From contig OZ237739.1 of NCBI GenBank assembly GCA_965178125.1, positions 62,001-126,000 on the forward strand: a stretch of 64,000 nucleotides of DNA. The letters run 5' to 3'. Positions 5,330 to 47,770 of this stretch are shown here, piece after piece; the stretch's first letter is position 1; each line of letters opens with the position of its first letter. The position numbers and the translations under genes were made by a program. Origin of the DNA: Bilabrum cf. latius. Lineage: Eukaryota. The notes beneath the pieces were generated by a model that did no database searches, was not told the DNA's origin, and saw only the letters and a list, made by a program, of their open reading frames with translations.

Positions 5330-8011
5330 ATGGCGAAACGAAGCAAGTTCGTTTTTTTGGTCATTCTTAGCGTGGTAATGATGCTTGGGCTGACACAAGC
5401 CAAGCTAGAAACCGCGGAAGGGATGTCGAAAGGGCTGTCGAACGTCATGGCCCCACCACCAGATGGCACCATCGCTGCGAAGCACGACACGCGGTCGAAA
5501 GATCTCGCCTCGGTGCCTAGCACAGCACCCGTTGCACTGTAGCAGCACGAAACGCAGGTCGATCAGGTCGCGCTGGCCACAGCGACCCCTCCCCCCAACC
5601 AGGGCGAGGACTGGTACGAGGCAGAGGACGGCGGCATCCGCCGGCTGGGCGAGCATTACCCCAGGCTGTTCGCACCTGGGTGGGAGTGGAGGCCCATCCG
5701 CCCCGGGCAGCACATCCCCGGCGGACTGGATGTGCGGGTGAGTCTCAGCGGCAGCGGGCAGCGGGAGGCGCGGCTGCTGCCCCAGCGGCAGTACACTCCC
5801 GACATGCTCGAAGACGTGGGGGACGGGGGCAGGGCCAAGCAGGGCTTGGAGCCTTTGGGCAACGGGCATGATGGTGCTGGAGGGGCGTTGGAACCTTCTT
5901 CGGAATCGATCGCACAGGCGCATGGGCTGCAGCAAGGCGTTGATGTAGACGCGTGCCCTGAATCAGCGGCCGGACAGGCTCTCGCTCTTGTGCCAGAGTC
6001 TGCGGGCGTCGCATCCGGTGAGTCCAATGGGCCGGTGCACCATGATACGCATGCCGCTGCCCGCGCCCTGCACGATGCCTTCGAGGCGCAGGCAGGTGGG
6101 GAGGTCGCGCACGAGGACGAGGACAGCGCACAGAGGGCACGCGCCGTGCAGGACAAGATAGACGAGGCGCTCAGGAGAGCGAGCCGGAAGCAGAGGGGCA
6201 ATGGCGGGGAGCAGATGCAGACGCAGACGGAGAATGAGGGCATGGACTCTGGGAGCAACAACTAGACGGCTCTAAACTTGGAGACTCCCGACGCCGCGAT
6301 TGTGTCGGGGGTACCTCAAGAGCATGGCGGTGAGAGGTACGAGGAGGAACAAGGGGGAGGCGTTGACGTGGCCGAGACGAGCGAGGCGGCGGCGGAGATG
6401 CGCCGCATCCTCACCGGCCTTCCGCAGCCCGAGCCAGAGGTATCCGAAGCTCTCGCCGCCGGACTGGAGGGCCCTGAGCTGGATGCACTCCTCAAGAGAG
6501 TGTGGGTGCGCAGGCAGAAAGACCTCCGGCGGGCCATGGAGTCCGCCCGCACAGAGGCCCAGCAGATGCAGGAGCTCATGGCGCAGATGGGCCCCGGAGG
6601 GGGGGCGGGTCATGATCATGGAGGCCAGTAGCAGGATGCGGATGACTCGCCCACTAGCGACCGCAGCGCACGCGTTGCAGCCCTGGAGTCCCTTGAGTTC
6701 CACGTGAGCAAGAGACACAACGCCGACGATTTCGCCCGAATGGGGGGCATGGTTGACATCGCACCCCTGTGGAACCACAGCGAGCCGCTGCGGCTGACCA
6801 GCCGACCAGGTGGAGACCCGGCCCCAAATGCAGCGTCGGATTTGAGTGCAACAGCGCTGTGGGTGCTGGGCTCAGCCACCAAGTACAACCCAGTGGCGGG
6901 AGAGGCCGCGCTGGAGACGGGCGCCATGCCGCTGGTGCTGCGCGCCCTGGAGGCAAACGCGCTTGCGGCGAGGTGGACTGCACGGCGTGCTCTGGAGGCG
7001 GCTCGTGAGAATCTTCCAGCGGCAGAGGCGACGCTCTTTCCTGCTTTGGCTCGCGGTAATGGCAGCGATGTTGGGCCGTCTGTGCTGCAGGAGATGCGCA
7101 GGGGGGCAGCGGGTGCGGGCAAGGCCATGTACGCTCTGGGGGGGCTGCTGCGGGGGGGGCGAGAGGCCCAGCGGCAGGCAGAGATCTTGGAGGCGGGGCG
7201 CGTGATAGGACAGGCGCTCGTGCAGCTGGGCGAGGCGGCCCGCGGCATGCACGAGGCAGCGACAGGGTGTGGCGGCCACTGGAAGGGTGCCTTCAAGGCG
7301 CAGAGGCAGCTGAGGCGTGTGGCGGGCAAGGGGGTGCGTCTGCTAGGCGATCTGGCGCATGAGCTGAGGAAGAGCGGAGAGGGCGGTGGGGAGCGGGTGG
7401 GCCCTGGTGGGGTGGTGGAGCAGGACGGGAAAGTGACCGTGTTGGATGGAGGGGCAGCCACAGGCGGACAAGAGGGCCCGGGTGATAGATAGATTGACGC
7501 TCACAAGGGCAGTGGCCCCTCCTTGGGGACGGCGAGGGGGGCCGTGCGCGCTATCCTGGAGCAGGCGACCGAGGGCCCACCAGCAGCCTGCGTCCTGGCC
7601 TCACCGCTGGATGCTGGCCAGGTGCTTGGCGGGCAGCTCGACCTGGAGGAGGATCCCGCCGTGGGGGATGTGCTCGAGGCGGCGGCCGAGTGGTCGGCGG
7701 CGCTCGGGAGGCCCCTGATCGGCCCGCCCGAGACCCGGAAGGAGTGGGGGAGTGTCGCGTGCGGGATGGAGCTGTCCGCCGGCCATGCAGCGGAAAGCAT
7801 CATCCAGGGGGCACGGGCCGCGGCGGCTCCGAGTGGATCGGCGGGAGGGGCAGCCGATGCACAAGAGGGGGCGGCTGCAGCGAGCGTGCCCGGGGACTCC
7901 GATGCAGTGATAGAGGCCGCTCTGGTTGAGTACCTGCGTGCCACTGATCTGCAAGACCAGGAGAAGGTGGCAGTGGCAGGCCGGGCCGTCGCGTCGTGGG
8001 CGGGCACGTGA
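5330..8011 (+). CDS. SIL1: SIL1-like ER nucleotide exchange factor (~893 aa)
   Basis: Signal peptide MAKRSKFVFLVILSVVMMLG; SIL1 N-terminal motif FAPGWEWRPIRPGQHIPGGLDVRVSL..REARL; Fes1/ARM-like ALESLEFHVSKRHNADDFARMGG. In-frame TAG at 5540, 6263, 6629, 7490; ends TGA. Confidence 0.8.
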
Positions 8012-8307
8012 GCTGCATCCGATTGCAAGTGGGATGGATGAATTTATACCGTAATAGTTACTACACGAGATCTCGGATTTCGTCTGGCCCTGAACTTGGC
8101 TGTAGTCAATTACAAGTTAAAAGCGCCTCCAATTCCTGGAAAGTCGCCCGTCTCCTCGCGGCTGCTGCAAAACACATCTCCCGCTTGCGACCGCTAGGCT
8201 GTCGGGTGCTCTTGTCGTCGGGAACGAGTCAGAAGACCCTGTCAGGCACATTTGCCAGGCAGCTTCCGAGCATCGCATCAGAGAGCTATCGACGTACCCC
8301 ACTGGCC

Positions 8308-11300
8308 TCACCGCCTGCCGCCCCCGTCCCTACCCATCATGGCCATGCGCTGCCCCATGGCCACCATGCGGGCCTTCTTCTGCTCCCTGCGGACTGGCTC
8401 CCAAAGGGCGTCCTCCCTGGCGCGCTTCTTGTTGCGCTCCAGCAGCCTCTTGGCGTCCGTGACCTTCTTCTTCCTGTCCCTGGCCTTCCTAAGCGTGTAG
8501 ATCTTCTGCATGAGGAGCGCCTTGGCCCTCTCGTCCTCCTCCATGACCACCGCCCGCTTCTACAGGTAGCCCTGCTTGCCGCGCTTGCTCAGGTTCTTGC
8601 TCTTGCTCGCGAATGGGAGCTGGCTCTCCAGCTTGTCTGAGATGACAAACTTGGCAAACCTACGCTCCTCGGGCCTCTCCTCGATCTTGCGGTACTCGCT
8701 GTCTTGCTTCTGCAGGGAACCGATGCCCCTCTCTCGCCTGAGCTCCCGGGCCGTCCGCATCAGCACCGTCCCGCCGGAGGAGGACGAGGACGAGGCAGCC
8801 CCGGCCGCTCCACGACTCGCCTTCCCAGCGCCCTACTCCTCCTCCTCGTCCGAATCGCTGTCCTCCCCTGACCCAGACCCCACTGCCGCCGTCCCCGCCT
8901 CACCATCGCCCTGGCCCTGGCTCTGGCTCCTCGCCGCGTCCAGCAGCGCCTTCCTCTCCTTCCTCGATCGCACCAGCTGGCGGCCCTCCCTCGCCTCCTC
9001 CAGCAGAGAGTACACGGGGTTGTAGAACTCGGGCAGGGGCACGGGCACCCACGCCCGCATGAACACAATGTCGCTCCTCAAGATCTTGTCCTCGAACTGC
9101 GCCCGGAAGGAGCCGGGCTGGCCCTCTTTGACGGCCTTCCGGACCCTCCCCCTAATCCCACTCACCGTCCGGATGGAGGCACCCTGGAATCGGGCCACCT
9201 CCAGCGGCGAGTTGAACATGCCGCGGATCACGGCCGAGTGCTTGCTCACCTTGGCCGGCTCGCCCACTAGCTTGAGTTTCTTGACCACGGTCAGGCTTTC
9301 CTCGTTCTCCAGTATGGTGCCAGTGGCGCAGATCCGGTAGGACGAGGCCGTGTCAGAGGTCAGCTAGTAGGCCAGGTAGCCCGTGCTGGGCGGGGTCACA
9401 GGCGCCTGGAATGCGGCCTCGCAGTGCATGTGCTCCGGCGAGTACTTGAGGAAGCGCTTGCGGCCGCTCAGGTCAGCCGTGAAGTACGAGGGCACGGTCT
9501 GGAAGCGCCTCCACCCCAGCGAGACGATGAACGGGTCGCTGTTCTTGAGCAGCCGGCCATGCCACCTGTGGCGCTTGACCCTGGACCGCAGCAGACCCAG
9601 CGTCTCCTCCTGCGCGGAGAGCCCGCCCACCACGACGGGCCTGGAGGGCTCAAAGTGCGTGATGAACTCGGCCGGCATGCCCCGCAGCTCAATCCGCACG
9701 TACTCCCCCGCCCTGTGCCCCCGCATGCGCCTCGCCTGCTCCTCCCTGAGCCCCGCAAACTCGTCCGCGTTAATGGCCTCCTGCAACTCCAGGGCCTCAC
9801 GGGCGGCGGCGGCCCCCTCCTTGCCCCAGTCCAGCCTCGAGGGGTCCTTGAGCATGATCATGCGCTCCTCATCCTCGTCCACCTCCTTGCCCTCGCCCCC
9901 CTCCCCCTCCCCGTCCTCGCCATCATCCCCTCCCTTGGCGCCTGCCTTGAAGGACCCGCGGTCGTACTTGGAGTCGAACTCGCGCTTCTTGGCAGCACGG
10001 AGCGCGTCCATCGCAGCACGGTCCATGTCCTCGTCGTCCTGGTCATCATCGCTGCTGCTGCCATCCGATGAATCCCCGTCATCATCGCTGTCGTCATCGC
10101 TGTCCTCTTCCATGGGCGCTCCCCCGCGCACCACCTCACCTGTCTCGAGATCCTCGAAATCGCCATACACGGAGGAATCGTCCGACTCATTCCCACCCTC
10201 GGCACCGCCCTAGCCGGATCCCTTGCCACTGCCGCTGCCAGTGCGCAGGCCCAGCACCTCCGCCGCCGCCTCCGCCGCCCCCGCGCCCCAGTCCCCTGTC
10301 ACGAACCGGTGCCTGAGACTGTCTGCCGCCTCGGGCGAGTCCCAGCGAGAGGGGTCGGCTGCCATGGACGAAGCACCCGCATGCCCGAAGGAGGCACCGG
10401 CGCCCGACGATGGACCGTTTGCAGGAGCAGAGGAAGGCCCGCCCGCAGGCACGTACAGGCTGCCGTCCTCGCCCCTGGACTGCGGCGCCACCAGCCCGAG
10501 CCAGCTGCTAGCCAGCGCCCTGGCGGTGGAGCTTGGCCCGCCACCCATGCTCCCGTACCCCTGTGCACCGGCAGCCCCGGACCCCTCCTCGCCCTCGTCC
10601 CCGATGGAGGCCCACGGCCTGCCCCCGCTCACCAGACGAGCCGCCTCCGCGGTGAGCAGACTCGACTCACGGGCGGACAGGGACAAGGACAGGGAGGAGC
10701 CCTCTCCACCAGCCGCGCCCCGCCCGCCCCGACTCCTGCTCGCCTTCCCCCTCGCCTCGTCACCCACGCGCCGCAGCAGCCCACCCTCCAGATCGTCGCT
10801 GTCGCTGCCGCTGTCCCCCTCCCCCTCCCCCTCATCTTCCTCCTCGCGCCCCCCAGACCCCCTCGGCCCCTCAAACCCAGTGCCCAGAAGAGCCACCCCC
10901 TCCCCGTCCTCCTCTTCGTCCCCGTACACCAGCCTCTCCAGGTCAACCGCACCGGCCTTGCGCTCGCTCAGCGCAGCCACTGCCCTCTGCACCAGCCGCT
11001 GCTTCCATACCGCCCCGACAGACCTGCCCTCTGAGGCACCGTACACCGCCCCCGCCCCCATCGCTAGCCCATTCCCCTCCTGTTCCCCGATATCGCTGTC
11101 GCTGTCACCGTCAGCCCCTTCTCCTGCGGCGCTGGATGCCCCACCGTACGTCTGCCCCACTCCCTCGCTGCCGTCATCGCTGTCACTGTCGCTGTCACTG
11201 TCACTATCACTGTCGCTGTCGCTGTCGCTGTCGCTCGACTCGCTCCCGTCTTCCTCCTTTTCCTCCTCGTCGGCCTCGCCCCAGTCCTGTTCCCCCGCCC

Positions 11301-12810
11301 CGTGCCTCACCGCAGGGCCCCCCTTGAACAGACTCATCTCCATGTCGCCCATGCGGTCGTCCAGCCCCTCCGCGAGCCCCTGCAGCCCCCGCACCATCAT
11401 GGTGCCGCTCCCCTCCCCGCTCGCCACCGCAGCGGCCGCCCCGGAGCTGCCCCTGCCCCCCGTCAGCCTGAGCCCCAGGGCCTCTGCCTCCGCTTCCGCC
11501 TTGGCAAGTTCCGCATCCAGGCGCCGCGCGTCATCGTCGTTGTCCTCCTCCCCGCCCGCCTCTCCCGCCCTGCGCCCCTTTGCCCCGCCCGCCCCCGCCT
11601 TCAGATCGGAGGCGCGGCTCAGCATGGCGGCCCCGTCGGGCAGGTGGATGTAGGTCGCGTCCTTGTCCATGACCAGCCCGCCCACGTTGCTCATGGGCGC
11701 GTACAGTAGCGTCTCCCTCGCGTTGAGCCTCCTGTGCACCGTGGCCCCGATGGTCTTCCCATCCGTGGCGCCCCCTGCCGCCGCCTGCCTGGCCCTCTGC
11801 TCCTCCTGCAGCTTCTGCTTGAGCTGCTCAGGCAGCGGCACGGGATCGTCCAGCGGATCTACTGCGCTCACCCTAAAGTCCCCAGCCCCGCACACGTGCA
11901 CGGCCTGTCCCGCCTTGAGCGGGGTCCCCCGCACGAAGCCGAAGAGGGCCACGGTCCGATCCGAGTGGGGGGCCGACTGCAGCAGCGCGGGGTTGGTGCG
12001 GTCCTCCACCCTGTCGCACAGCAGGTATGGGTGCGTGCTCCTCCACACGATGGGCCTCATCTTGGTGCGCGAGATGAATAGGCCCAGGTTGTGCACCTCC
12101 CGCTTGAGGTACGAGCCGTGCTTGACCCCCGACAGGTAGAACAGCTTGGCCCCGTGGTACACCTCCGTCCAGAACCTGTGCTTGAGGAGCGTCTTCCTCT
12201 TGCGCATGGCCTTGCTGTCAGCGAATGCGTCCAGGTGGGTGAGCACCCCCATGACCTTGGGGAAGCCATGGGTCTGCATGATGTTGAGCATCTCGAACGT
12301 CTCCATCTCGAAGCCAAAGGAGGCGTCCACCACGAGGAGCATCAGGTCTGCGATCTTCGCCGCGTCTACCATTGCGTTGATGTCGCTCTGCACCTCAAGC
12401 AGGGTCACGCGCTTGCGCCGGCCTGCCACCACCGTGATCGGACCGCGCACGTCCTTAACCTTCTGGTTGGTCCAGCGACGCACGAGGCTCTGAATCAGAG
12501 TAGTCTTGCCTACTCCAGGAGGTCCTGCAACACATACTACCACCGGCGGGTCAGCAGACCCTTTCCGCTGCTCAATGAGGGCGTGCTCCCTCTTGTGCAG
12601 ACGGTCCAAGTTTCGCTGAATCGACCGCTTTGTCTTGCCTACCTTCGCGACACCATACGCTCGCGGGTTCCTGCGCCTTTCTTTTTCTGAAACCTGCTTG
12701 TCACCGAGGCTTGACTGTCCCTTCAACCTCTGCTCCTTCTTCTTCTTAGCCTTGGCTCCGGCTTGTGGGGCGCTATGCGACTTGTTCGGCTGCTGTCCCC
12801 CAGCATCCAT
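8308..12810 (-). CDS. BMS1: Ribosome biogenesis GTPase BMS1 (~1500 aa)
   Basis: [12 protein letters not shown]-loop, [55 protein letters not shown]. Five track ORFs lie in one frame, joined by TAGs at 10210, 9364, 8833, 8560; ends TGA at 8308-8310. Confidence 0.95.
11177..11236. repeat. Imperfect hexamer tandem repeat (TCGCTG/TCACTG) encoding (Ser-Asp)n in BMS1
   Basis: Visible tandem hexamers; translates as SDSDSDSD on the minus strand. Confidence 0.8.
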
Positions 12811-12994: not shown

Positions 12995-15685
12995 ATGAAG
13001 CGTTATGCCCGGATCGTGCGTGTTCTGAGACGAAGTGCCCAGAAGATATCGCTGAGAGGGATTACAGGCCGGAAAACGTGCCGGATGTGCGCCCAATGCT
13101 CCCTGGCGAGACTGTCATCGCATCAACGCACTCTCTCGACGTCGGTTGCAAGGGCCACAAAAACAGGGGCCAGCGATGCAGTCCGCGACGAAGGGTATGA
13201 TCGTTTGTCCGACGTGCTTGTCGAGAAGGTGAGACATGAACGGGAGCTTGCCCGTGTTTGGTGCTCGCTGCCACATCACGACTTGAACAGGTAGACCAAG
13301 CCATCCGCCTGGTTTGTATTCCCTCCGCAGATCCGCCGTGACGGTCCAATGACATTGGCAGCGTACATGCGCGAGGCACTCACGCACCCGAAGTTCGGCT
13401 ACTACACGCGGAGGGCGCACGTGATCGGCCGCGAGGGCGACTTTGTGACCGCCCCCGAGCTTACCTCCCTCTTCGGCGAATCCATCGGCCTGTGGATACT
13501 GAGCCACTGGAAAGCGTGCGCAGAGCCCTCTTTGGTCCGCTTGGTGGAGCTGGGGCCCGGCCGCGGTACCCTCATGCGCGACGTGCTGGCAGTGCTTCGG
13601 CTCTGCCGGCCTCTGTACCAGGCCCTGTGCGTGCACATGGTGGAGGTCTCCCCTGTGCTGCGGGAGAGGCAGAGACAGGCACTGGAGGCCGTCCCCTTGC
13701 CCCGGGCAGAGGGCGAGCGAGACCTGCAGGAGCGCGGCATGAGGGCGGACCCCTCGCTGGAGGCCGCCTCGCTGCCCCCCATGGGACCCTCCGAGAGGAC
13801 GGGGGACGCAGAGGTGGACAAAGTGTGGGAGCAGGTCAGGTTCGCCAGCCCGGGACCGGGCCCCAGCGCCTCTAGCCCGGGGCTGCCGTCCCCCTCCAGC
13901 ACAGGGGCAGTCGCAGCCGCTGCCGCCAAAGAGCCCATGTACGCGATGGCGCTGTCCGACGGGCCCACCGTGACGTGGCACAGGCAGCTGTCCAGTGTGC
14001 CGTCGCACGGATGGGCCGTGCACGTGGCCCACGAGCTGTTCGACGCGCTGCCCGCGCACCAGATCCTCAAGACAACCGAGGGCTGGAGGGAGGTGCTCGT
14101 GGCCGAGAGGGAGACCGGCGCTGTGACGAGTGCGCCCGATGGGTATGTGACGAGTGCGGAGGAGGAGGCCAGGCTGCTCGGGCTGGGCAGCTGGGACCGG
14201 GCGCGGGCGGGTCCGGGAGCCCCCTCCCCCCGCAGCTTTGACGAGTGGGGCGGGGCGCACCAGCTGGACCTGGACCTGGGGCGCAGGGCGGGCGCCTCTG
14301 TGGAGGACGGGGCGAGGGACCGAAGCCCGTACGAGGGGAAGGAGGAGAAGGGTGGTGGATCGGATCGGGAGGGCCCCAGGACGCTGCGCATGGTGCTGAG
14401 CTCGGAGGAGACCCCCGCGGTGCGGTTCTTCAGGGGGGGGCAGTCGGGGGGCAGTCGGCTGGGGGGTGCCCTTGGGCTGGACGAGGAGCAGGTGGAGCAG
14501 CTGACCAGGGAAGCGGAGCAGGACGATGGTTCGGAGGGCGGGACAGGGGGGCAGGGCAAGCTGCCGAGCGTTGGGAGGGTGCCTGCCTCTGTCCGCGCGC
14601 TGGCTGCCACTGAGCTCAACCGGCCCTCGCTGGAGGAGGCAGTGAGGGGCATGGGCAAGGGGGATGCGGAGGGGCCCACGGAGCGGGTGGGTGAAGGCGA
14701 AGCGGAGCAAAGGGCCGAGTCGAAAGCGTCCATGGATATTCCGGATGAACTGCCGGTGCCTCCTCTATTCAGAGACCTCAAACCGATCGTGGAGGATAAG
14801 GAGGGGGATGCTCGCAGTGGGAGCATTGACACGGAACACAATGATGGAGGGTCGGAGCAGAAGGAGGGCCAGGACCAGGACGAGGTGGGCCGCTTGCTGA
14901 AGGAGCTCGGGGGCAAGCTCAGGGACCACGGGGCCATGGGGACGCCCGATGCCAGGGAACAAGCGGGGGAACAAGGGACAGGGAGGAGCAGTGCCGAGGG
15001 CGAGGAGGAAGAGAAAGAGGGCGAGGGCGCAGGCACAGACCCCATGGAGCGGTGGATGCAAGCGGCCCCGGTGGGCACCCGCGTGGAGTACTCGCCCTCT
15101 GCAGCGGCTCTGGCCCACGAGCTGGCGGTGCGGGTGGCCGTGACCCGGGGTCTGGCGCTGGTGGTGGACTACGGGCACGACAGGGCCTCTGCCCACAGCC
15201 TCCGGGGGATCCGGAATCACGCCTTTACCCACCCCCTGGAGCGGCCGGGGGACTCGGACGTGACCGTGGACGTGGACTTCAGGGCGGTGAGGCACGCCGC
15301 CGAGGCCGCCGGTCCCGGGGTGCGGGTGACCGGGCCCATGGACCAGAGCGAGTTCTTGCAGCGGATGGCGATCGTGGAGAGGGCGCAGAGTGCGCTGGCG
15401 GGGAGGCTTAAGGCCGAGCAGCAGGCGGGGGGGTCGGGGGAGGAGACGGAGGAGCTGCGGGTGAAGCTGGAGGCGGCGCTGCGGCGGCTGCTGCACCCCG
15501 GTGAGATGGGCTCGCTGTACAAGATGCTGGCCATCAGCAGCGCGGGGGCGCCGGTGCCCACCCCGTTCGAGCACTCTCTGAGTCCCGAGGAGAGGCGGAG
15601 GGTGGAGCGTGAGATCGTTGAGGAGCAGGAGAAGATCAGGAGGAGGATGCCGGCGGGCGCGGGGCCGCCCATGCCGGATTTCTGA
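12995..15685 (+). CDS. NDUFAF7: NDUFAF7/MidA mitochondrial arginine methyltransferase (~862 aa, with large insertions)
   Basis: Exons 12995-13228 and 13331-15685; splicing gives LSDVLVEK/IRRDGPMTLAAYM. Motifs GDFVTAPE, LVELGPGRGTL, AHELFDALP, VDYG, DVTVDVDF, MGSLYK. Arg-rich transit-like N-terminus; ends TGA; no TAG in exons. Confidence 0.9.
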
Positions 15686-15941
15686 TCGAGGGCTTGGGCA
15701 ATGCAGGGGTGCTGCCAAGTGGGCGCACTTGCCTGCCGATGTTGTATCGAGGGACGACCTTACGCTGCTGCTTGGTATTGTTGAAATTCAACGTCTGGTC
15801 GGCGCGTCAAGCTGGCCCAAATCTCGGACATTTCTTGAGAGTTCCTGAATGTTCCTGGGAGCTGCCAGGCGGTTTCCTATGCCAGCAGACGCACGTGTGG
15901 CTGTTCAGCCTTAGAGCAAATATTTGCGACAATCGAGCCGC

Positions 15942-18322
15942 ATGGCAGAAGTGGAAGTATTCGGGGAACCAACTGAGGAGGAGCGCGCGGCTGCCTAGCA
16001 ACGAAGACGGCAGCGATAGCGAAGCGCGGCACGCGCTGCTCTCTGGTCTCCGCAGGAAGTCCGCTCAGTCGTTCCAACCAAGACTGTTGAAGTGCAAACG
16101 AGATAGCTGCATCAAGATGCTTGGGCATCAGCTGCTGTTCTTGCAGTTGGCTGTCTTGCAGCGTTCTCTGCTGCTCTGCAATTAGGGGCAGTTGGGGCGT
16201 CGGACTGGAGCGGTGCGACTTGCACGGTCGTCGCTGGCTCTGTTGATTCAGGAGGCACGTGTGACAGGCTATAGCTGGAATCTTCGGCTGGTTCAGCGCA
16301 TTCCATAAACGATATCGCACTTGAGCTGGGACAAGTTCCCTCAAGCGGCGCCGGGTGCTCATCGCTCGTCGGGCAGGCCTTCTCTTGCTTCACGAACGAT
16401 TTAGAAGACGCTGCGTGTGTAGGAGACACAAAACCGGACCCTGTTCATAGATATGTGTAAGGCACTCCTATATTCAGCCTATCACAACCTTAGCCGTGGA
16501 TGAAAGCCGCGGTCGACACCATCACGCCCACATCTAGCTCCTTGCCACTCGCAGGTCATCAAGCCTCGCAATCGGCATCGGTATCACCGTAGCCATCGCA
16601 TCCGGCCTCCCGCTCCTGCTCTGGGGCGTGCGATATTGCATGCACAACCCAGAGCTGCCGTACGCCTGGGCGTACAGGTCCTACTGGGCCTCCGTGTGGG
16701 TGCTCGCCTTCCTCGGAGCGGGCGCGCTGGCTATCGCCGTCGCGGCCATGCTCGTCCCCGCCCTGGGCGACGTGCGGTCCACCCAGTGCGTCATCACAGA
16801 AGTGGAGCCCATGGCCGGTGCGAGCGGCTCAGTGTGCTCCTCCGTGCTCCGCGTGGGTGCCCTCGGCCTGGACCGGCACGGGGTCCTCCTCGATGGGGTC
16901 GAGGGGCTCTCGGCCAGCGCCGTGTCCCGCTGCACCCCGGGCACGTCCTCCCTCATCGGCACAGAGATCGACTGCTGGTACCGCCGCAGCCAGCACCGCG
17001 CGCAGGAGTGGAGGCCCCCTCGCTACCCGGAGGCCTGTCCCTCGTACGGGGCCCAAGTGTCCGACCGCAGGGGGCGCTTCTACGGCGAGCTGTGGACCAG
17101 CCGGGCCGGGGCCCCTCAGAGCTACGACGAACTGGAGCAGCTGCTTCTGGGGATTGGTGGCTTGCTGGGGGCCTGCATCGTGGCGCCCGCCCTGCTGCTG
17201 TACCCCATCTCGGAGGCCGTGCAGAGCGGCAGGGTGTGCCGCTGCTGCTGCGGGGACGAAGAGGAGGCAGACCCTGACCCCGATGCGGGGCCAGGGAGCG
17301 CTGCGGGGACCCCGCGAGGCAGGCACAGGGGAGTGGCCGGTGGGGATGAGGGTGACGAGGACGGCAGCGAGGAGGGGGACGTGCAGGCGAGGGCAGAGCG
17401 GGAGGACGCCGCGCTGGCGAGGGCCCTTCAGGACGCGGGGCCGGAGGCCGACTTCGAGCAGATCATGCGGCAGGTGAGGACTCAGCTGCAGGCGGACCGG
17501 GAGCAGCGGCGGCGTGCGATGGCAGCCAGGGCGGCGCTTGCGGGCCGGGGCTCGGGTGAGAGGAGGAGGGGGAGGAGGGGGGGGAATCCACAGGACGCGA
17601 GGCACAGGCTCCGGGGGGTCCTGTGGGATGCAGACTCGGTGCGGAGCGCGGATCCAGTGGCGCAGGTGTCGGAGCGGTCGCTACCTGGCGAGGAGGAGGG
17701 GGGGCACTCTGGGCGAGATCCTGGGGGTGTTGGCGGGGATGTGGATGGGGATGGGGATGGGCAGGGGCAGGGGCACGCAGTTGTGCTCGTGGGTGCTGGC
17801 GGGGGTTCGGATGAATCTGGTGGGGGTGGCGCTGATGGTGTGGGTGTGGAGCTGGCATGGCGCGGCGGTGCTACAAGGGGGCCAGATGCAGAAGTGATCG
17901 AAGGGGGTGGCACCGGTGAGGAAGGTGGACTGGATGGTAGATCTAGTCTGGCACCAGGCACAACCGCCGCTCCTCCTGTGTCCGTCAGCCACACTGGGTC
18001 TCGGGGCAGCTTGGACGATGAGGAGTTACCCGAGGGGTTGCAGGCCGGTAGAGATAATGTTGCGGGCCGTGCAGGCGCAAGGGGCGGGGAACAAGGTGAT
18101 GGGAGCCCTGCTGGCTCCGAGTCGTCTGCAGGTGGAGGAACCACACCGGGAGGGGATGGAGGTGGGGGCATGCCAGACGATGATGCCGGGAGGCAGGACG
18201 GGCCCTGGTCTGCCCTTGTGTCAACTGCTCCAGTGGCGCAGGGAGAAGGAGGAGGTGATGGCGGGATAGCGCCAGGGGCAGCGGGCCCGCCGCCTGCTTA
18301 CGAGGCGCCAGAGGAGGCGTGA
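15942..18322 (+). CDS. Multi-pass membrane protein with two tandem TM/Cys-loop/TM modules (~760 aa)
   Basis: Exon 15942-16456 (TAG at 15996, 16017, 16104, 16272; absent from the ORF track), intron 16457-16554 (GTAAGG..CGCAG), exon 16555-18322 ending TGA. Four hydrophobic segments. Confidence 0.7.
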
Positions 18323-18585: not shown

Positions 18586-20451
18586 TCACGCCTCCCTGTC
18601 TTTGGGCCCCGCCTCGAGCAGCAAATCGCTCGCGTACCACCTCAGCTCCAGCACGTCCCAGCCCCCGAGCCCGTGCACCACCACCACGTTCAACACAAGG
18701 TACGCAAGCACGTGGATGCGGGCCGCGTGACCCAGCCAGCCCGGGCCGGCGCACACGAGGTACAGGTACCCCGAGCCCAGGAGCAGCAGCCCCACCACAG
18801 TGGCAACTCTCCACACAGTCAGCCCGGAGCCAGCTCGCGACCCAGCCTTCTCTCCATCACGTTCACGTTCAATCTCACTTTCACCGCTGCCCGCACCTTT
18901 TTCTCCGCCCTGACTCGAGCCGCCCTCCACCTCGATTCCCCCGTCCTCACGCACCCCCAGTGCCTTGAGGATCCTGTCGCTCTCTTCTACAACCAATGCA
19001 TCTGTCGGAATGCGAGCCTACCCCGCTGCCGAACGGTCACTAGCCCCCGCCAGTCGTGTCCCCTAGCCCCCGCTTGCCTCCCCTCCTTCCTGCTCTTGTT
19101 CTTCGAATGCGGGCCACTCGTCTGCGTCATCCTCCAGTGACTGCCTGCACACCGACTCGCACACCTAATCCTTGCGAGACCAAGCCCGCATCAACCACGC
19201 CTCCAGGCCCTCCCCGACATTGCCCAGTTGTGGAGGCCTGCGCTCGCCCCCTCCACTCCCCCCGTCGCTCTGCGCACCCCGGCTGCCGCTCGACCCCTCG
19301 CCCCGTTCTCCGACCCTCGGGTCGTCCTCCTCGCCCTCGCCCTCGTCCTCATCGCCGCTCTCGTGCAGGCGCTGCTCCCACGGGCCACCAAACACCCCTG
19401 GCTCCAGCTTGGCAAGTGCCACGAGACCGCCGTCCGCCTGTTGTTCCCCGCTGAGCCCCCTAAGCCGCATCACGGCACAGGACGGGCATGCACCCTGCAG
19501 GACGGCGGAGGCCTCCGTGCGCGGCATCACCCCGCGGTAGCACATGGTGGTGTCCAGCACCCGCACGCCGGAGCCAGGGGCCTGGGCCTGTCCCGCCACC
19601 CGCAGCGCCGCCCCCTCTTGCGCCCCAGTGCCCCGCACAGGGACGAGGTGAGGCCCCGCCGCCGCACGCAGCAGGGCAGCGATGCCCCTCCTGCGAGGGA
19701 GCAGCGAGCGGCAGGGGAAGCCTGGGTGCAGCCCGAGCCGGCTGACCACCTGTTTCTCGCTGGCCTTAGCTCGTGCGGATTCCACCTTTCTGCGGTGCGC
19801 ATCGGTTCCCTCTGGGAATATGAGCCACACGGCGCGCTGGACGGGGGCCTCTGCCAGCCGCTCGTCCCGGTACACGCAGGCCGCAAAGGATCGCGCTGCC
19901 GATGAAAGCACCCCGCCCTTTGGCCCGGCGCCGAGTGCCTACCGAGCTACGTGCGCGCTCATTGCTGCCAAATGGTGCTTATCTTGCTCAAAATTCCGCC
20001 TCAAGAAGAGGTAATTATTCTGTTGCATGAACCAGCCTAGCAAAGGCGCCTTCTTGAGCTCCCCTTTCAGCACAATCCTGAGTTCAGGAAGCGATGCGCC
20101 AGGCGGACAATCGTTCATAGCCATGGATGCCCACACGTACATCCAATCCAGCCGCGTCGGGTGGTTGCACAGGAGTACCGATACACCGGGCGCATCGTCG
20201 TCCAGTCCCTCGAGAAGATCGGGGCTTGCCACCAAAGTAAGGTCAGTGCGCAGACAAAGCTGAATCAAGCATGCGCATCCAACACAAAATACTGTCTGGA
20301 TGGCACCTAGCAGCAACCTGTAGGCCGGGAGTTCGCCAAGCAATAGCAAGGGATAGCTGAACGGCGTAAGAAACGCACAGCAGGCAACAGCAACGATAAA
20401 CACACCGAGTACGAACGCAACGCGAGCAAAGATGGACACACGTGCTACCAT
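18586..20451 (-). CDS. Lysophospholipid acyltransferase, LCLAT1/AGPAT family (~621 aa)
   Basis: NHPTRLDW (NHxxxxD), IVLKGELKKAPLLGWFMQ..YLFLRR, IFPEGTD, C-terminal TM helices. In-frame TAG at 19939, 19165, 19063, 19018; ends TGA. Confidence 0.85.
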
Positions 20452-20673
20452 CAAGCTGTATTGTGGAATTCTACGAGAACGATGGGCTATATCATCGTGG
20501 TTAGATACGTACGTTGAATTCGGAGCAGCTGCTGGTGTTAAAGCTCGTTTCTTTCTACACTCATCAAACACAAAACCAAGGATGCCAAAACCTGCTCATT
20601 AACCTAAGCTCGAGCGCTGGGTAGCCTTATGTCGGGGTCAGCGGTGTGCGAGAACTCTTGCTCGTGGCATACT

Positions 20674-21279
20674 TTACAGCGCCGCCTCTAGAGCGCTAGC
20701 GACGGCCTTGCTCTTGAGCGCCATATCCTCCATCCGACGAGTCTACTTGGAGGCTAACTCTTGCATAGTGGATTCCTCCAGCAGAGCTAAGCACGACGGG
20801 CATCGCATCCTGCGACGAGATGCTCGAGCACCCACCAAACGAGCTGCACAAGCCACGTGCGCTACACCCTGGCAGCACGAGAATTCCATCAAATCGTACC
20901 TTCCGATTGAGTTATCTTGTAAACTCTGGCTGCCAGTTTTCAGCGAACAAGCGACGTCGACGGCAGCTCCAGAGTCCGAGAGCGGAAGCAGGCAAACGCA
21001 ACATTCGTTCGAATCCGAGGAATCAGACGCTGGAGAACCAATCTTGAGCGCTGGAGTAGATGGAACTGTTGCTGATTCTCTCGCTCCGTTGCCCGCCGCG
21101 CTTGCAATCGTGTGCGCGCGACTAACTTCAGAAGTGAGCATCTGCGCAGATCGGCCTCCAACTGCAAGTGCGGCTTGATCGTAGCCATGTGCCAATTCAC
21201 CGTGCACTGCACACCACCAATCACTCGAGAATCTTTCTTCCCCACGATCGGGGGCAGCTAGACCTTGAGTCCTCTCCAT
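20674..21279 (-). CDS. Small RING-variant zinc-finger protein
   Basis: CCVC...CCQGVAHVAC...CPSC pattern; TAG at 20743 read through; then TAA at 20674-20676, or TGA at 20638-20640 if TAA is also sense. Confidence 0.6.
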
Positions 21280-21513
21280 CTAGCAGTAAGCTGTGCGCGG
21301 ATTTGCTAGCCGAGCACGCCATGGAGACTGGTTGGAAGTGGTCGCAACTCTGCCGAAAGGGCAACTACATGGGAACCTATATCATTTGAGTGCATTCTGC
21401 ATTAAACATGCCCAACTATGATACGTGTGTGCTGGCAACCCGCGCAGTAGCGTCGCGGCATGCGGATGGCCGCACTCTGTCAAGCAGCCCGAAGCATCTG
21501 CCCGCTTCTTGGC

Positions 21514-23261
21514 TCACTTCAGAGCGAGCGAAAGAGCAGACCCCGATGCTATTCCTACCTGCAAGATAAGTCCCATCAAGAAACCCACCTTCTCTCTGTC
21601 CACCGGGTCCACCATCCGCGGTGCATACGCGAAAGCGAGCGTAGACACGTATCCGTTCGAAAGCGCAAAGACGAGCATCAGCACCAGGGTCCACGGGTCC
21701 GACGACACAACAGGGAGTGCCCTGGCCGCCACGATCCACAGAGGGACGAAGACGATCCTCGCCAGAGAGGCCCACGGCAGCGTCTGGCGAGAGACGCAGG
21801 TGAGCACCGCGGGCAGCGAGCGCCCGGTCGTGTCCCCGATCTGGAAGGCGGTCAGCAGCACCACGGGCCACCAGTCCGCCTTGCTCAGCCCGGGAAGTCC
21901 CACTGTTCCCTCGTACTTGACGGCCACCACCTCCCCGGGGAACACAAAGAACGTCGCGGTGAACACGAACCCAATGGCGAACATCATGGGCCACACCACC
22001 TTGGACACCCGCAGCAGCGCCGTCAGCCTGCCCCCGCAGGACGAGTCCTCCCCCTATCCCTGTCCCTGCTCGCCCCCGGCGCCCAGCAGAGCGTTCGCTT
22101 CCGTCGGCTGCCGGGGCGCAGAGGCCGAGGCAGGCGGGGGCGCCGCCACTCCGTCCAATCCCGCGTCTCCATCCTCATCGTCCCTGCCCCTCTCCCGCTC
22201 CTTGTACTCTTGCATGGAAAATCCACCCGGGGAATCCAGTCCGTTGATGCGGCGAGCGCTCCCCAGCTGGGACCGCCTGCGCGAAGAAGCAGCCCCAGCC
22301 CCAGCTGCGCCCCCCTCCCGTTCCATCTCCCCCTCGAGCAGAGGTGAGGCCATGGGCGACTTTGCCCTTCTCCCTGCCTGCTCATCGGTGCCATTCGCAG
22401 CTCCTTCCTTGCTATTGTTCTCTTCTGCCGCCCTCCTGTTCTCCACCTCGTCCAGGAATCGCCTGGAGAAGGGCATGGACACGAGCCAGAGGTAGCACGC
22501 GGAGCACACGAGCAGCACCACCCCCGCGGTGATGAAGTAGATGATGGCGCTCTCCTTGTGCTGGGTGGGGAGCGCGATCTTGGTGGCGATCCGCAGGATG
22601 GAAGCCAGGATGCCGGCCACTCCCTGCCCACTCATGAGCCCCGTGTTATAGATCTACGGGTAGAGGCTGCTGAGCCCAAACAGAGACGGCTGCTGGATGC
22701 TCGTGCACACCCCGATGAACAGAACCGTCCCGATCGTAACCCAAACCCCGTAATGCGCGTAGAAGGGAAGCAGCACCAGCACGATAGCCTGTCCGATAAA
22801 GGTGCTCAGGATGCGTGCGCCGAACGAAAAGTTTTCCCCGACGACCATCACCACACCCAGCATGGGAAGTTGGGGGTAAATGTACGCCACAGACAAGAAA
22901 AAAGATATGCCGCTACCAGGATACTCTTCCGTAAAGTAATCCAAACTGCGAAAAATTGCAACAAAGTCGGCGCGTAGTAAATGTCACAAGAGTGTGTTTG
23001 TGCAGGCGCAAGCTTCAGGCTCAAAAAGGCTTGCAAAAGCCAGACTCACGCAAGAAGTACGATATTCCACGGCATCAGGAGCCCCAAACCGAGGATGGTC
23101 ATCAATACATACGCCGTGCAATTGAAGTCGGATGGTTTTGATATGTGGCTGCCATCGTCGTCTTCCAGTACGTCGCCGTGGTGCCCCAACGTCGGAGTTC
23201 GGGGAGGAAAATCTTTCTTATTTTCAAGTTTCTTCACCTCAGGTGAAATTGCGGCCTGCAT
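21514..23261 (-). CDS. Equilibrative nucleoside transporter, SLC29/ENT family (~547 aa)
   Basis: Exons 23261-23050 and 22945-21514; splicing restores LGLGLLMPWNIVLLA/LDYF. Motifs MSGQGVAG, FFVFPG, GDTTGR, LSNGY. TAG at 22654 and 22054; ends TGA. Confidence 0.9.
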
Positions 23262-23901
23262 TGCAAGGGTTCCTGTTGCGTTCAAGTGGTGCACCGGTTC
23301 GAGGCTCCCCTTCACTTGCGCTGCCTCACTCGCCTTGCGAGCAGAAAAGCGAGAGCGGGCTCAGGTCGCTTGGTTGGTAAATCGAAATTATTCGATACAA
23401 ACTTCACTGCGTAGTATGAACCTGCCTCGACCTGGCGTGACCCTTGACTTTTGGTGTCTGCCAAGTTTTCCAGAATAACACGCTACCCGCAGCCTCGAGG
23501 CTGAGGGCAATTTTGGCTTAGGGCCAGCGAAGCGACGGACGGTGACTTCACGACGCAAAGCTGACCCTGATGGGCGACCACTGTAAGCAAATCGATGAAC
23601 CCAGATTGATTACGCGCATGCAATTCACGATTCGAACCGCCTGTCCAGAGAGACCCAGCCCAGTCCACGCACCCTCTGGCACTGGCACGCCGGATGGACG
23701 GCACCAGTCGGAGCCTACCCATCGCTGAGACAACAGACTTCCGACCAAAGCGTGGCTGCAGCAGGCCGCTTCATGACTGCAATGGAGAGAGCGCCCAGCC
23801 CAGCCCAGCCCCGCGCCCTCCCCCTGGCTAGTACTACTAGTCGCACCCTGCCGTACGCCAGTGGCTCACGATCCCAGCAGTTCACACCCCTAGCAGATGT
23901 A

Positions 23902-24609
23902 TCACCAGCAACCGTCTTGCTTAGTCATCTTGACGGGCAGGTTCTGCGTGTTAAGCCCCATGGCCTCAGCGCGCTGGAAGAGGTTGTCCACGATGGACTG
24001 GGGCAGAGTGGGCTTCCGCGAAAGCACGTGAATGCAGTAGTTCGTACCCAGGTAACTCGCCCCGCAGTCGTACTCTACCGAAACATCGTGCTTGATCCCA
24101 GTGGAGTTGTCCACCATCGTCTCGAGGATGATGGCCGTGTAGTTAACCCCTGGCGGCGTGCCGAAGAAACTCTGCGGTAGAGGGGAGGGGCAGTGGGGGT
24201 GTGAGGACAAGACCAGTACCATCTCAGGTGGGATGAACCGCACAGACAACGCAGTTCGAACTCAATGTGGGGACACACTTCTTACCTCTTCCCATCGGCC
24301 TGGGGGGCCTTCATTCAGCAACGTGCCACTGGCGTTGATGACTTTCCCTTGCGGCGTCTTGTCCCTGCACACATTGTCTGCCCGATAGTTACCGTCCGCC
24401 TTTGGTACTACCTATATATTCGTGCAGACGCAGCTGGACTCGAAGATAGCTCCGCCCCAAGTCTGAATCTTTGCAATCTCGTACCACTAGCCTTGATACT
24501 TATCATTGGAAAATTCCTTGGCTGGAGCAGGATGGAGACATTGTCCCTGGGCACTTGCCCCTGTAGAGACAAAGACAATTCCTGCAACTGCACTGATTAG
24601 CGAGAGCAT
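23902..24609 (-). CDS. Secreted lipocalin (~197 aa)
   Basis: Signal peptide MLSLISAVAGIVFVSTGASA; lipocalin motif KYQG*WYEIAK (GxWY); C-terminal HVLSRKPTL. TAG at 24487 and 24412; intron 24172-24285; ends TGA. Confidence 0.85.
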
Positions 24610-31255: not shown

Positions 31256-34200
31256 ATGAGTCGCAGGGCAGATCGCAGATGTATGACTTCCGTCGGTTTC
31301 AGCGAACTCTTCCGCTGGGAAAACGAACGTTCTCTAAGCAGAAAATGGCCAAGGTGTTCACGTGCAGCTTACAGGATGCAGCCGATACGAAAACTCAGTT
31401 CGTCGTCCTCCCATGCTTGGACAAGTTGTTTACAAGCGACTCAATCCAGATACCACGCCTCTCTGCTTCAGATACTGAAAAAACGAAGCGGGCAAGGATG
31501 TTCCCATGCGGTCTCAGCTCGACTTGCCCACACAGGTCCCAGACCAAGGCCTTTGCGTGACAACAAGCGGCGCCCAAGACATAAATAGGCTCTACCGACT
31601 AATGTTGCGCAGTCAGGCTCTCCTGATCATTGGTCGGGCACGCTTCTGGAGAGCGAGACGGCTAGATGCAACGCCGTACGGAAACTGCGGGATGCCACCG
31701 CTCTCAGACGATTCTTTAACCAGCACAAGGTAGTCATGTAGGGTGAGCACTATAATGCAAAGCTAATCTCACGCCTTCATGCAGAAATCACCTCATATTT
31801 TCCCGTTCATTCGGTTTCGGTGCCCTTGCCACGCAGGCCCGAGCCTGACTTTGTCGCTGCTGGCCATCGCTCGCCAGCGCTGGGCGCGCGCTGAGGAGGG
31901 GAAGCTGGTGCATGACATTATCGCAGAGACTCGCCTGAAGGCCTCGAAGGACCTAGCGGCCTTCACGCCCATGCAGCTCGCATACGTCCCGTACGCCATC
32001 AGCAAGATATACAACGCCAGCAGGAGCAGGACCTTTGCCTTCATCCGATCGACAACCGCGTCCAGGCGGTCGCCCCACAAGCCGCTGCACCGCCTGCTAG
32101 CCCCCGCGCCGCACCCCGAAGCAGCTGCTCGCGTGCTCCGCGCGCACCTGTCGAGCCCAGAGGGCCAGGCGCTGGAGCGGGCCGTGGGGAGCTCTGGCCT
32201 GAATCCAAAGCAGCTGTGCACCTGGGAGGCGCGAGGATTCTCCCTGTCCATCGGCCTCATGCGGGTGCTGCTGACCCGCATCACCTCCATGATGGCGCGT
32301 GGCTCGCTGAACGGGCTGCAGGCTGCCAACTGCGTGCTGGGCCTCACGCACGTGCTGCACGACGAGGCCTTTTCCGCTCACCGAATGTTTGCCAAGGCCA
32401 TGGAGAAGGACGAGGTGCTGGCCGCGCAGGTGATGAGCCAGCGCCACAGCGCCACCATCGCGCTGTACGTGCTGCAGCGCAGCAAGTGCGAAGGCTTCCT
32501 GTGGGAGCAGCACGTGAGGGCGGCCGTCGGTCAGATGCAGCGCATTGCGGTGCAGCATGGGATCGGGCAGGGTGTCCCGGGAGAGGCTTTGTAGCCGGAA
32601 GGGGCTGGGCACGGCACCACCGGCAAGGAACACGAGCGCGGGCACGCAGCGGGGGGCGTGGCGGGTGCAGCCAAGGCCGGGAGCCACGGAGACCCAGAGG
32701 CAGAGGCAGCCGATTCTGGGTGTCCCAGTGGCACCTCGCTCGCAGGCCCCAGCCCGCTGCAGCACTCCCCGCCCTACCTGATCGCGGGGCTGCTGCACCT
32801 GGCCGCCCTTCGGAAGGCACCCCGCGCCGATTTCGTCCGAGAGGCAGTGCGTCAGCTCTCCGTCCCCGGGGCGTTGGAGGACCTGTCCATACAGCAGCTG
32901 GATGACCTGGCGTGGGCTGCGGGCGCCCTGGCTCTGGAGGACCCGGAGCTGGGGCACGAGCTGGCGGAGCGGGCCGCTCGACTGGCGCCTGGGCTCAAGA
33001 AAAGGGAGCTGCTGTCGCTGTGCCTGAAGCTCTCCGCAATGCAGTGCATCACACCCTCGCTGCTCGAGGAGGCCACGGACGCGGTGCTGGGCTCCCACCC
33101 GGGGCTCGAGGTGCTGGCCCGGCTACCCGTGCAGGTGACGGCGAGGGAGGGGCCGGTGGCCGCCTGGCGCACGCGCGTGTCGCTCGAGCACTCTACCAGG
33201 CAGCAGGTTCGGTCCAGATCGAAGATGAAGAGAGCGCAGTCCATCCGTCGACTCGGCCAGGATGCAGGGGAGCCGCGGGACGAGGCCGGTGCGGGAGTGG
33301 GGGCGGCAGGCGCAGAAGTGGGAGGAGCTCGCGGGCAATGGGTGGCGTCGAGGGGGCGAGACGTGCCCGGGGCGCCGGTGGACGTGGCAGAGCAGCCCAC
33401 CTCCGTAGAGACGATGCGCTCGCTGATCACCTCGGCCAAGATCGCGGTGGCCCAGCGTGGCACCAACGGGAAGCGGTCCATCGCGCTGGGTCGATGCCTT
33501 GCTGCATGTGCCATCGCGAACGCCCCTCGGGGCAGCGGGGCCGCTGAGAAGGACCTGGTGGCCGCCGTGGTCTTCGGGCTGGCCCATCTGCCGCCCTTGG
33601 AAGCCGCCGCGCTGCTATCCAACGGCCCGGTGGCCTTCAGGCTGGGTGCGTCGCTGGAGGCTCTCACGGAGCTGTACGAGGAACAGGCCGAGGACGGGCG
33701 CCGTCGGATGGAGGCATTCGAGGAGGAGGCGGGGGCGGCCGTGCTGGGAGGCGCCAGGGAACAAGAGGAGGAGATGGCCCTGGAGGCTCTGAGCGAGGAG
33801 CTGATCGACAGGGCGAGGCAGGCCCTGTCGGAGCAGGGACAGGGGTGGGACAGCGAGGTGAACGAGGGCGAGGCGCTGACAGAGGCGGTAGTGCGGAGGG
33901 CCAAGGAGGCGTGGGCGGGGAGGGTGTGCGATCGTGCGATGCAGATGGCGAGGGAGCGCATGCGGCAGGCGAGGCTTGACCGAAGCCGAGCCGTGGCCGA
34001 GCAGAACAAGCAGAGCGAGTCAGCGAAGGGGCGGGGGCAGGGGCAGACACTTCACCAAGGGCGTCAGGCGGATGACAAGAGAGCCGGGAACCCTGCCGCT
34101 GAAAAAGGGGGCTCGGAAACTGCTGCTGCCGGGGAGGACTCTTTGGCCGGCGCTGGCCACCCGCGCGCGCCCGACTCCCCGGCCCCCAAGACGGCCCTCA

Positions 34201-38417: not shown

Positions 38418-38779
38418 AGCAATTGAACAACGGAGAGAGCTGCCAGTTACGTCTCAGAGCCAACACTACAAAGGTAGTGGCTGCCTTAAATTTATGAAGC
38501 GTACACAAAAATAACCAAATCTGAGGAGCTTGAGGGACCTTCCGGCTTTTCCTACCTTGTGTAGGGCAAAAAGGGTGGTATCCACATGTCTGATTTAATT
38601 TGTATATAGCGTGATAAATGCGTCCCACCGCCGCCTCGAGAAAGATCCCAATTGCTTCCCTCGGAACCAAGGTATGCAGCAATTTGTTCTAGCCTATGCA
38701 CTCTAAAAAATGATGTGTGCGGAATGGTCGTTTTCCATCTATTTGTGTGCCCTAGCATGGTTCTCGCAGCGTACGCACC

Positions 38780-44400: not shown

Positions 44401-44769
44401 CGGCTAATGACCGCTCGTAATATTTAGAGATGAAAAATCGAAGTCAAAGTCGTCCTCGGTCGTGAGAGTTGACGTGCCAAACTCATCATTGCCCTCTTCG
44501 CCGTCCGGTGATTCGCCGTCGCCATTCTTGCTCTCGCTCGCGCCAGCTCCCGACGATGCAACCCTTCGGGACAGCTCTGACATGCTGAGGGATGCAGTTC
44601 CACCGAGGAGCTCATCGCGCGCGCTATCTTCGTTCCCGTCTGCACTCTCTGGCTCGCTTGCCTGCTTTGCTGGAGCCTTTGGCGCCGGAGAGTCAGCGTA
44701 TCGATTGGGGGTGTCAGCCGTCACAGTCGACCCTGCAAACAATGCATTTCTTGACGCATCTTCCTGCAT
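41449..44769 (-). CDS. VPS52: GARP complex subunit VPS52 (~1044 aa)
   Basis: LQSFQQQLGSITREIRGLQ..KLRNR, LKRPNTNVQMLQ, YEQVFRS, CHDSVAILL, LAWPRFKAIFDANLKS, PHSATKRFAEF. Intron 43459-43644; TAG at 44404, 44257, 43771, 43042, 41497; ends TGA. Confidence 0.9.
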
Positions 44770-46071: not shown

Positions 46072-46168
46072 TGTTTATCCTTCTTGCCGTCACTGTACGA
46101 ACCTTGCAGTGCCGTTCCTGAAGCCTGGTTCCGGGTTCTACAAATCTACTGATTATTGGCATTCGAAG

Positions 46169-47173: not shown

Positions 47174-47362
47174 TAGTATACTGGAGGCAAGCCCTTGTTA
47201 TTTTGCATAGAAATTGTGCGCATAATCCACTTCCACTTCCAGTCGGCACGTCTGGTGAATGGTGGCTTCAAGTTGCTGCCCGCAATCGTACTTCCGGTTT
47301 ACATGGATCGGAGCAGGAATCAACTGTACTTTTCTTGCCACGGATAGAGCAACAAAACAAAC

Positions 47363-47435
47363 CGCCTCTGCTAGGATTCGAACCTAGATTGAGTGCTTCA
47401 AAGGCACCAGTGCTGAACCATTACACCACAGAGGC
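47363..47435 (-). tRNA. trnQ: tRNA-Gln, anticodon UUG
   Basis: Cloverleaf GCCTCTG TG GTGT-AATGGTTCA-GCAC T GGTGC-CTTTGAA-GCACT CAAT CTAGG-TTCGAAT-CCTAG CAGAGGC G (73 nt); anticodon at 47399-47401; T-rich Pol III-like terminator follows. Confidence 0.92.
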
Positions 47436-47770
47436 ACAATTCCCAGATGCCAAATCACCAAGCAACGGACCTGCGACACCCCGTGTACGAGCACATTCTA
47501 CCCCAAAGAAGCAAGAGGTTTCGACAGAGCCGATCCCAGCAGGCTCCGCAATGCGACCGCACGAGCTCCACCCTGCTTCACCCAGTGTACACGCCGCCCT
47601 GTCTCCACATCGCCTGGCCGGTGAGGGTAGTTTCGCCCGCCGATCGAAGGGTCCACCTTCACCGCACGGCGACGGCAGAAGCCAATAGCCGTGCGGTGGC
47701 CTCGCACCACAGTGACGAATCTACCACGCAAGTGACGCGACGCAAGTCGCCACCAGGCTGAAAGGCCGGC

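Follow-up and report, generated by a model that had tools for sequence, protein, structure and literature searches.

The question raised by this locus is whether UAA still ends translation in an organism whose genes are crossed by in-frame TAG codons. The stretch of DNA analysed here, 64,000 nt long and referred to as the window, holds a RING-like gene that runs through one TAG, reaches a TAA and meets a TGA shortly afterwards. A code in which UAG specifies glutamine while UAA and UGA act as stops corresponds to NCBI translation table 15. This pattern is the reading favoured here, with a probability of about 0.85: in the nuclear code of the organism, UAG would specify glutamine, UGA would be the routine stop and UAA a functional but rarely used one. 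The positions on which the argument draws are summarized in Table 1.

Table 1. Features of the 64,000-nt window that bear on the reading of TAG, TAA and TGA.
Feature	Position	Strand	Observation
TAG in BMS1, residue 1149, motif GFLAYQT	9364..9366	-	Q in 102 of 120 homologues; RNA contig 8091-9889 with 0 differences from DNA
RNA-confirmed intron	13227-13328	+	Spliced out in run contigs
RNA-confirmed intron holding TAA 16458 (part of the GTAAG 5' splice site)	16457-16554	+	Spliced in X5, X7 and X8 contigs
TGA stop of acyltransferase, ..GPKDREA-TGA	18586..18588	-	L002 ortholog ..GPKDKTL-TAA (6594-6596) at the same position
TAG in acyltransferase, SAHVAR[Q]	19939..19941	-	CAG at this site in L002 ortholog
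Next in-frame TGA, 11 codons (SMPRARVLAHR) beyond the RING-like TAA	20638..20640	-	No counterpart extension in homologues
RING-like zinc-finger gene, 201 codons plus TAA, atypical codon usage	20674..21279	-	phmmer homologues; invariant Cys/His
TAA taken as stop of RING-like gene	20674..20676	-	..GCG CTG TAA; L002 ortholog has TGA at the aligned position
In-frame TAG taken as sense (Gln) in RING-like gene	20743..20745	-	Homology to P0144 and L002 ortholog goes on past the TAG
TAG in nucleoside transporter (ENT), LSSLYP[Q]IYNTGL	22654..22656	-	CAG in L002 ortholog; identical 12-residue context
RNA-confirmed intron	22946-23049	-	Spliced out in run contigs
RNA-confirmed intron	24172-24285	-	Spliced out in run contigs
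Predicted intron (GTRAG..YGCAG, 94 nt) holding TAA 31764	31743-31836		
Canonical tRNA-Gln(UUG), sole tRNA gene of the window	47362..47436	-	ARAGORN; Rfam tRNA 64.9 bits
Predicted intron (GTRAG..YGCAG, 97 nt) holding TAA 61162	61104-61200		

Genes of the window and the meaning of UAG

The window is eukaryotic nuclear DNA with a GC content of 64.3%, and long open frames extend across it once TAG is taken as sense. A Pfam match at E<=0.001 was found for 14 of the 19 long TAG-containing frames, and the genes of the window are therefore considered real. The families include BMS1, an NDUFAF7-type methyltransferase, an acyltransferase, an equilibrative nucleoside transporter and IF3, as well as RRM proteins, WD40, aspartoacylase, Vps52 and COG6; a second Pfam scan of the window added eIF4E, monothiol glutaredoxin and SAM methyltransferase. 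Three public runs (X5, X7 and X8) yielded contigs that match the window DNA with four GT..AG introns of 98-114 nt spliced out, and because these contigs are spliced, the runs represent RNA of the window's organism. Over TAG-bearing stretches such as 8091-9889, 15917-17551 and 21388-22945 the RNA contigs show 0 differences from the DNA. RNA and DNA thus agree across TAG sites in three runs, which excludes RNA editing of the TAGs. This agreement already contradicts the broader proposal that the TAGs go untranslated, whether through RNA editing, splicing, pseudogenes or assembly errors. Nothing in favour of that proposal was found in the window data, the frames with TAG as sense are open and conserved over up to 2,439 codons, and a separate metagenome organism has the same pattern, so that its probability is close to negligible.

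Several further properties of the window were observed. GC content is lower at 20001-24000 and 44001-52000 (0.58-0.60, against about 0.65 elsewhere in the window), and GC3 bias is weaker in these low-GC stretches, as seen in the RING-like gene, the methyltransferase at 49521-50279 and the genes at 46382-47173 and 47771-48526. Conserved proteins are swollen by long low-complexity inserts (SD, GQ, AP and GS repeats), e.g. BMS1 (8311-12810, minus strand), whose 1,500 residues compare with approximately 1,100-1,450 in homologues. On the minus strand at 45181-46074, a gene with two sense TAGs encodes a secreted-looking protein of 297 residues with a peptidoglycan-binding domain (PG_binding_1, E 1.6e-6); such a domain is unusual for eukaryotes, and the gene may have been acquired from bacteria. 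RNA contigs of the nucleoside transporter from two runs end no more than 2 nt apart (X5 at 21388, X7 at 21390), about 125 nt after the TGA of the gene, a weak hint of its poly(A) site.

The position of the organism was investigated with two BMS1 trees, one under LG+G4 with 39 rows and one under LG+C20 PMSF with 26 rows. Both trees place it within the stramenopiles as sister to a clade containing Cafeteria, on a long branch and with SH-aLRT values of 99 and 98. The position beside Cafeteria is provisional because it derives from a single gene and because amino-acid composition is unusual in the query as well as in Cafeteria.

The meaning of UAG was compared between the window and L002, a metagenome contig of 6,823 bp and 56% GC from a relative. 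Its gene order is that of the window: a nucleoside transporter (63% protein identity), a RING-like gene and an acyltransferase (47%), with protein identity across the three syntenic genes ranging from 47 to 68%. The 3' end of the contig (6672-6823) is occupied by a tandem array with a unit of about 20 nt (CCATGGGGGACAGGGCGGCT), present in at least 7 copies and running off the end; it may be a subtelomeric repeat, a satellite or something else. At all three conserved TAG sites (two window TAGs and one L002 TAG) the ortholog has CAG; the L002 TAG lies in the acyltransferase at the conserved P-I-[Q]-RACWLI, where the CAG belongs to the window ortholog. In variable regions the TAGs stand opposite assorted residues when the window and L002 are aligned. 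Many window TAGs fall within GQGQ or poly-Q runs. Among the four TAGs of BMS1, the one given in Table 1 aligns with a glutamine found in most homologues, and the remaining three are uninformative because their columns are gapped or variable. By these comparisons UAG is shown to encode glutamine in both the window's organism and the L002 relative, which upholds the assignment made in the preliminary description of this DNA. TAG makes up 8.9% of the glutamine codons in the gene models (68 of 762); with one more TAG in the RING-like gene, the count comes close to the approximately 77 internal TAGs reported before.

TAA in and around coding frames

If UAA had followed UAG into the sense code, TAA should be found inside genes. 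The gene models used for this comparison comprise 24 segments, for which ORFs were combined with the RNA-confirmed introns and with two further introns that are predicted. Their 17,057 codons contain 68 TAG, 594 CAG and 100 CAA in frame, with 0 TAA and 0 TGA, which agrees with the earlier observation that no sure internal TAA occurs while CAA is in regular use. Third-position A/G ratios in the same coding set are 0.168 for CAA/CAG, 0.189 for AAA/AAG and 0.218 for GAA/GAG. From these ratios and the 68 TAGs, 11.4-14.8 TAA codons would be expected, against 0 seen (Poisson P 1e-5 to 4e-7). GC bias, which had been put forward as a possible reason for the missing sense TAA, falls short of explaining this difference. 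The coding sequence of L002 has 10 TAG and 0 TAA in 1,637 codons, where 3.4 TAA would be expected.

TAA served as an ORF boundary when the gene models were built; two extra checks were therefore made, which probe the gene models but are no substitute for a real annotation. When ORFs were bounded by TGA only, the TAAs gained were confined to introns and to the 5' margins of real genes, ahead of their start codons. The second check is independent of the models; it takes each stop triplet and scores the 40 codons before it and the 40 codons after it by codon-usage log-odds, the threshold being set at 8 bits. The strands of the window contain 165 and 163 TAA, 335 and 357 TAG, and 695 and 701 TGA triplets; both flanks were coding-like for 31 of 692 TAG, 1 of 1396 TGA and 0 of 328 TAA. 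The sole TGA with coding-like flanks, at 38254, lies in a Gly-repeat region. It originates from the Gly/Arg-rich N-terminus of a WD40 protein (38066-38453, minus strand), which is so repetitive that a second frame scores as coding.

The remaining in-frame TAAs had been assigned to introns, and this holds for all three: the TAA at 16458 lies in an RNA-confirmed intron, and those at 31764 and 61162 lie in predicted introns similar in size to the four RNA-confirmed ones (Table 1). Three ORFs that end in TAA were considered and rejected as genes. The ORF at 48711-49400 (plus strand) consists of G-rich sequence that precedes the start of the methyltransferase, the ORF at 45215-45730 (plus strand) is antisense to a coding gene, and the ORF at 16492 (minus strand) is likewise antisense.

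These counts bear on the ordinary code in which UAA and UAG both specify glutamine (table 6) and TAA would be rare simply through the 64% GC of the genome. TAA is indeed rare everywhere, with the strand counts above standing against approximately 365 expected from base composition, and UAA and UAG usually change together according to the portions available of two sources (PMC5304391; PMC11687900). However, 11-15 TAA codons would be expected under this code where none is present, and no in-frame TAA aligned to glutamine was found in the coding frames of the window or L002. Both TAAs that follow coding sequence, discussed below, sit exactly where the ortholog has TGA, and GC3 falls past the TAA of the RING-like gene. 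The shared reassignment of UAA and UAG is thus considered extremely improbable.

Gene ends in the window and in a relative

The RING-like gene scores poorly by codon usage, with a log-odds of -16.2 over 201 codons and a GC3 of 0.52 compared with approximately 0.75 in other genes. A phmmer search with its protein against 1.84 billion representatives gave 6 matches at E<=0.001, among them P0141 as the best (9.4e-19) and P0144 (3.4e-4). Eight Cys/His residues are invariant in four sequences (C93, C96, C135, C136, H141, C144, C160 and C163). Given these homologues and invariant residues, the ORF is regarded as a real, conserved gene. Its earlier label of RING gene is reduced here to RING-like, since the Pfam profile zf-RING_2 matches the protein with an E-value of 0.55 and a score of 11 bits, below the cut-off of 27.3. 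The Cys expected of a RING finger (zf-RING_2 / C3HC4) two residues after C144 is absent, and Pfam assigned no family to the RING-like protein, to P0144 or to the ortholog in L002.

The end of the gene, previously described as ..ALEAAL-TAA followed by SMPRARVLAHR-TGA, was confirmed in the sequence of the minus strand. The protein closes in the window with ..KSKAVASALEAAL-TAA (..KAVASALEAAL-TAA) and in L002 with ..KAVLSALASL-TGA, and the more distant homologue P0144 closes with ..SSKALATALRKGIDAL, also given as ..KALATALRKGIDAL. The tail motif K-A-[VL]-x-[ST]-A-L..L is conserved before the stop in the RING-like orthologs, and the same final Leu closes all four aligned C-termini. Past the TAA, the 11 codons up to the next TGA have a GC3 of 0.36 (down from 0.52) and a log-odds of -5.75, and this TGA is probably in the 3' UTR. 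RNA depth over the bin 20674-21340, which covers the RING-like gene, was 0, 2.4 and 1.1 in the three runs, too little for the 3' end to be read.

The L002 ortholog of this gene is known from databases in a shorter form. P0141 is encoded by L002 and by a second metagenome contig, L001; the two share 1,988 bases without a difference. The database protein ends at a TAG (L002 4446-4448), whereas with TAG as glutamine the frame runs on through ..SAERQQRGKAVLSALASL to a TGA at 4503-4505. Gene calling with the standard code gave P0141 (L002 3726-4445) an end at a sense TAG and a start in sequence that is probably non-coding. Most genes of this genome, and of metagenome contigs related to it, are cut short when annotated with the standard code, and P0141 illustrates how the lineage is mis-annotated in public protein sets.

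A further possibility is a context-dependent code, comparable to that of Condylostoma or karyorelict ciliates, in which UAG would be glutamine inside genes and also a stop near mRNA 3' ends. Some TAGs stand near gene ends, e.g. in the gene at 61930, whose TGA follows 8 codons later, and in Vps52, where the distance to the TGA is 15 codons. Within 20 codons after TGA stops there are four in-frame TAGs, alongside 8 TGA and 1 TAA, numbers too small to bear on tandem stops. In the RING-like gene, however, a motif is conserved past the late TAG in both organisms (SKAVASAL, GKAVLSAL and SKALATAL among the homologues). Moreover, no gene needs a TAG stop, because every frame meets TGA or TAA soon after its last conserved residues. 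TAG might also terminate in some contexts, given that some TAGs stand 8-15 codons from gene ends; as an account of the code as a whole, context dependence is quite improbable.

For the reading of UAA, the gene ends of the two organisms can be compared in both directions. The RING-like gene has TAA in the window and TGA in L002, and the acyltransferase has TGA in the window and TAA in L002 (Table 1). TAA and TGA thus swap at homologous ends in both directions, from which it follows that UAA terminates. Two working stops would be expected to swap in this way, whereas a codon that is sense or unassigned would not; the support comes from two TAA-ended genes, one per organism, a small sample with ends read from sequence. 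The end of the RING-like gene had been presented as the only test case for UAA. It is no longer the sole one, because the acyltransferase ortholog of the relative also ends in TAA, and the two reciprocal comparisons with L002 strengthen the earlier suggestion of UAA as a rare stop.

TGA ends 22 of the 22 other window genes whose 3' end lies in the window, the RING-like gene being the one that ends in TAA, and it ends 3 of the 4 L002 genes. UGA is thus the main stop, as had been proposed, and UAA a minor one. The same predominance could be taken to mean that UAA is unassigned or avoided, neither decoded nor an efficient stop, with UGA as the sole working stop. With TGA at the end of all the other window genes, UAA is used at most rarely, which would suit this explanation. 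Two orthologous ends with TAA in one organism and TGA in the other are nevertheless hard to square with a non-functional codon kept in place, and an unassigned UAA is considered very improbable.

The code and known systems

The evidence from both organisms converges on UAG as glutamine with UAA and UGA as stops. UAG aligns with glutamine, UAA is missing from coding frames beyond what composition would give, and UAA stands at conserved C-termini in two cases. Judged from the aligned genes, this code is shared by the environmental relative represented by L002; being common to both organisms, the change predates their split. The window's organism apparently adds a new lineage to those with the table 15 pattern.

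A tRNA-Gln(CUA), whose anticodon differs at a single base from that of tRNA-Gln(CUG), would be the likely decoder of UAG. Its C34 would pair with G and not with A, and for this reason UAA would be left untouched. The release factor eRF1 would no longer recognise UAG efficiently but would still recognise UAA and UGA. The same logic of tRNA(CUA) and eRF1 has been put forward for other lineages with UAG-only changes, as given in the available portions of the literature (PMC5304391; PMC11687900). The canonical tRNA-Gln(UUG) of the window is silent on UAG decoding because it is not a suppressor, and its sequence, searched with a free anticodon, had no exact match in the metagenome_contigs, genome_contigs and viral_contigs collections. 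No eRF1 gene is present in the 64-kb window or L002.

In the full-text literature, whose coverage was partial and in which a published description may exist, no report of nuclear UAG reassignment or of any nuclear code change in stramenopiles was found. The locus could represent the first nuclear code change in stramenopiles, in a GC-rich clade of Cafeteria-related heterotrophs with at least 2 members (47-68% identity), UAG as glutamine, UGA as the near-sole terminator and UAA as a vestigial stop; this wider proposal is tentative and stays somewhat short of an even chance. If true, a GC-rich stramenopile clade would be the reverse of the AT-rich ciliate cases in which UAA is the preferred stop. 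The decoupling of UAG and UAA is known in only a handful of nuclear lineages, as far as the accessible parts of two sources extend (PMC5304391; PMC11687900). Every independent decoupling tests the idea that tRNA(CUA) captures UAG without dragging UAA along, and a GC-rich, UGA-dominated case would help to part the roles of mutational bias, stop usage and eRF1 specificity in code change.

Several known systems can be compared with the present one, all as described in the excerpts available of PMC5304391 and PMC11687900. UAG as glutamine with UAA kept as a stop has been described in Iotanema spirale (Fornicata) and in the ciliates Protocruzia tuzeti, Hartmannula sinica and Trochilia petrani (PMC5304391; PMC11687900). 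The window's organism resembles these four in having UAG as glutamine, UAA and UGA as stops, a decoupled UAR pair and tRNA(CUA) as the expected decoder. It differs from them in its apparent lineage beside Cafeteria and in its genome of 64% GC. UGA is dominant and UAA rare here (22 TGA to 1 TAA), whereas the taxa covered by those parts of PMC11687900 prefer UAA. The share of TAG among glutamine codons is also lower, at 8.9% compared with 18.5% and 31.8% in two phyllopharyngean ciliates with UAG as glutamine (PMC11687900).

Codes in which UAA and UAG both specify glutamine (table 6) have been described in the same excerpts for many ciliates, ulvophycean green algae, Hexamita, Streblomastix and Amoeboaphelidium (PMC5304391; PMC11687900). 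Like these, the present code has a stop reassigned to glutamine in a nuclear genome; unlike these, it shows no sense UAA, and UAA is found at conserved gene ends. UAG is read as leucine in exLh, a rhizarian, as well as in TARA ciliate MAGs, and as serine in Scotinosphaera, according to the same partial sources (PMC5304391; PMC11687900). These systems share with the window's organism the reassignment of UAG alone, with UAA still a stop, but in place of leucine or serine the amino acid is glutamine here, as read from Q in 102 of 120 BMS1 homologues and CAG in the orthologs.
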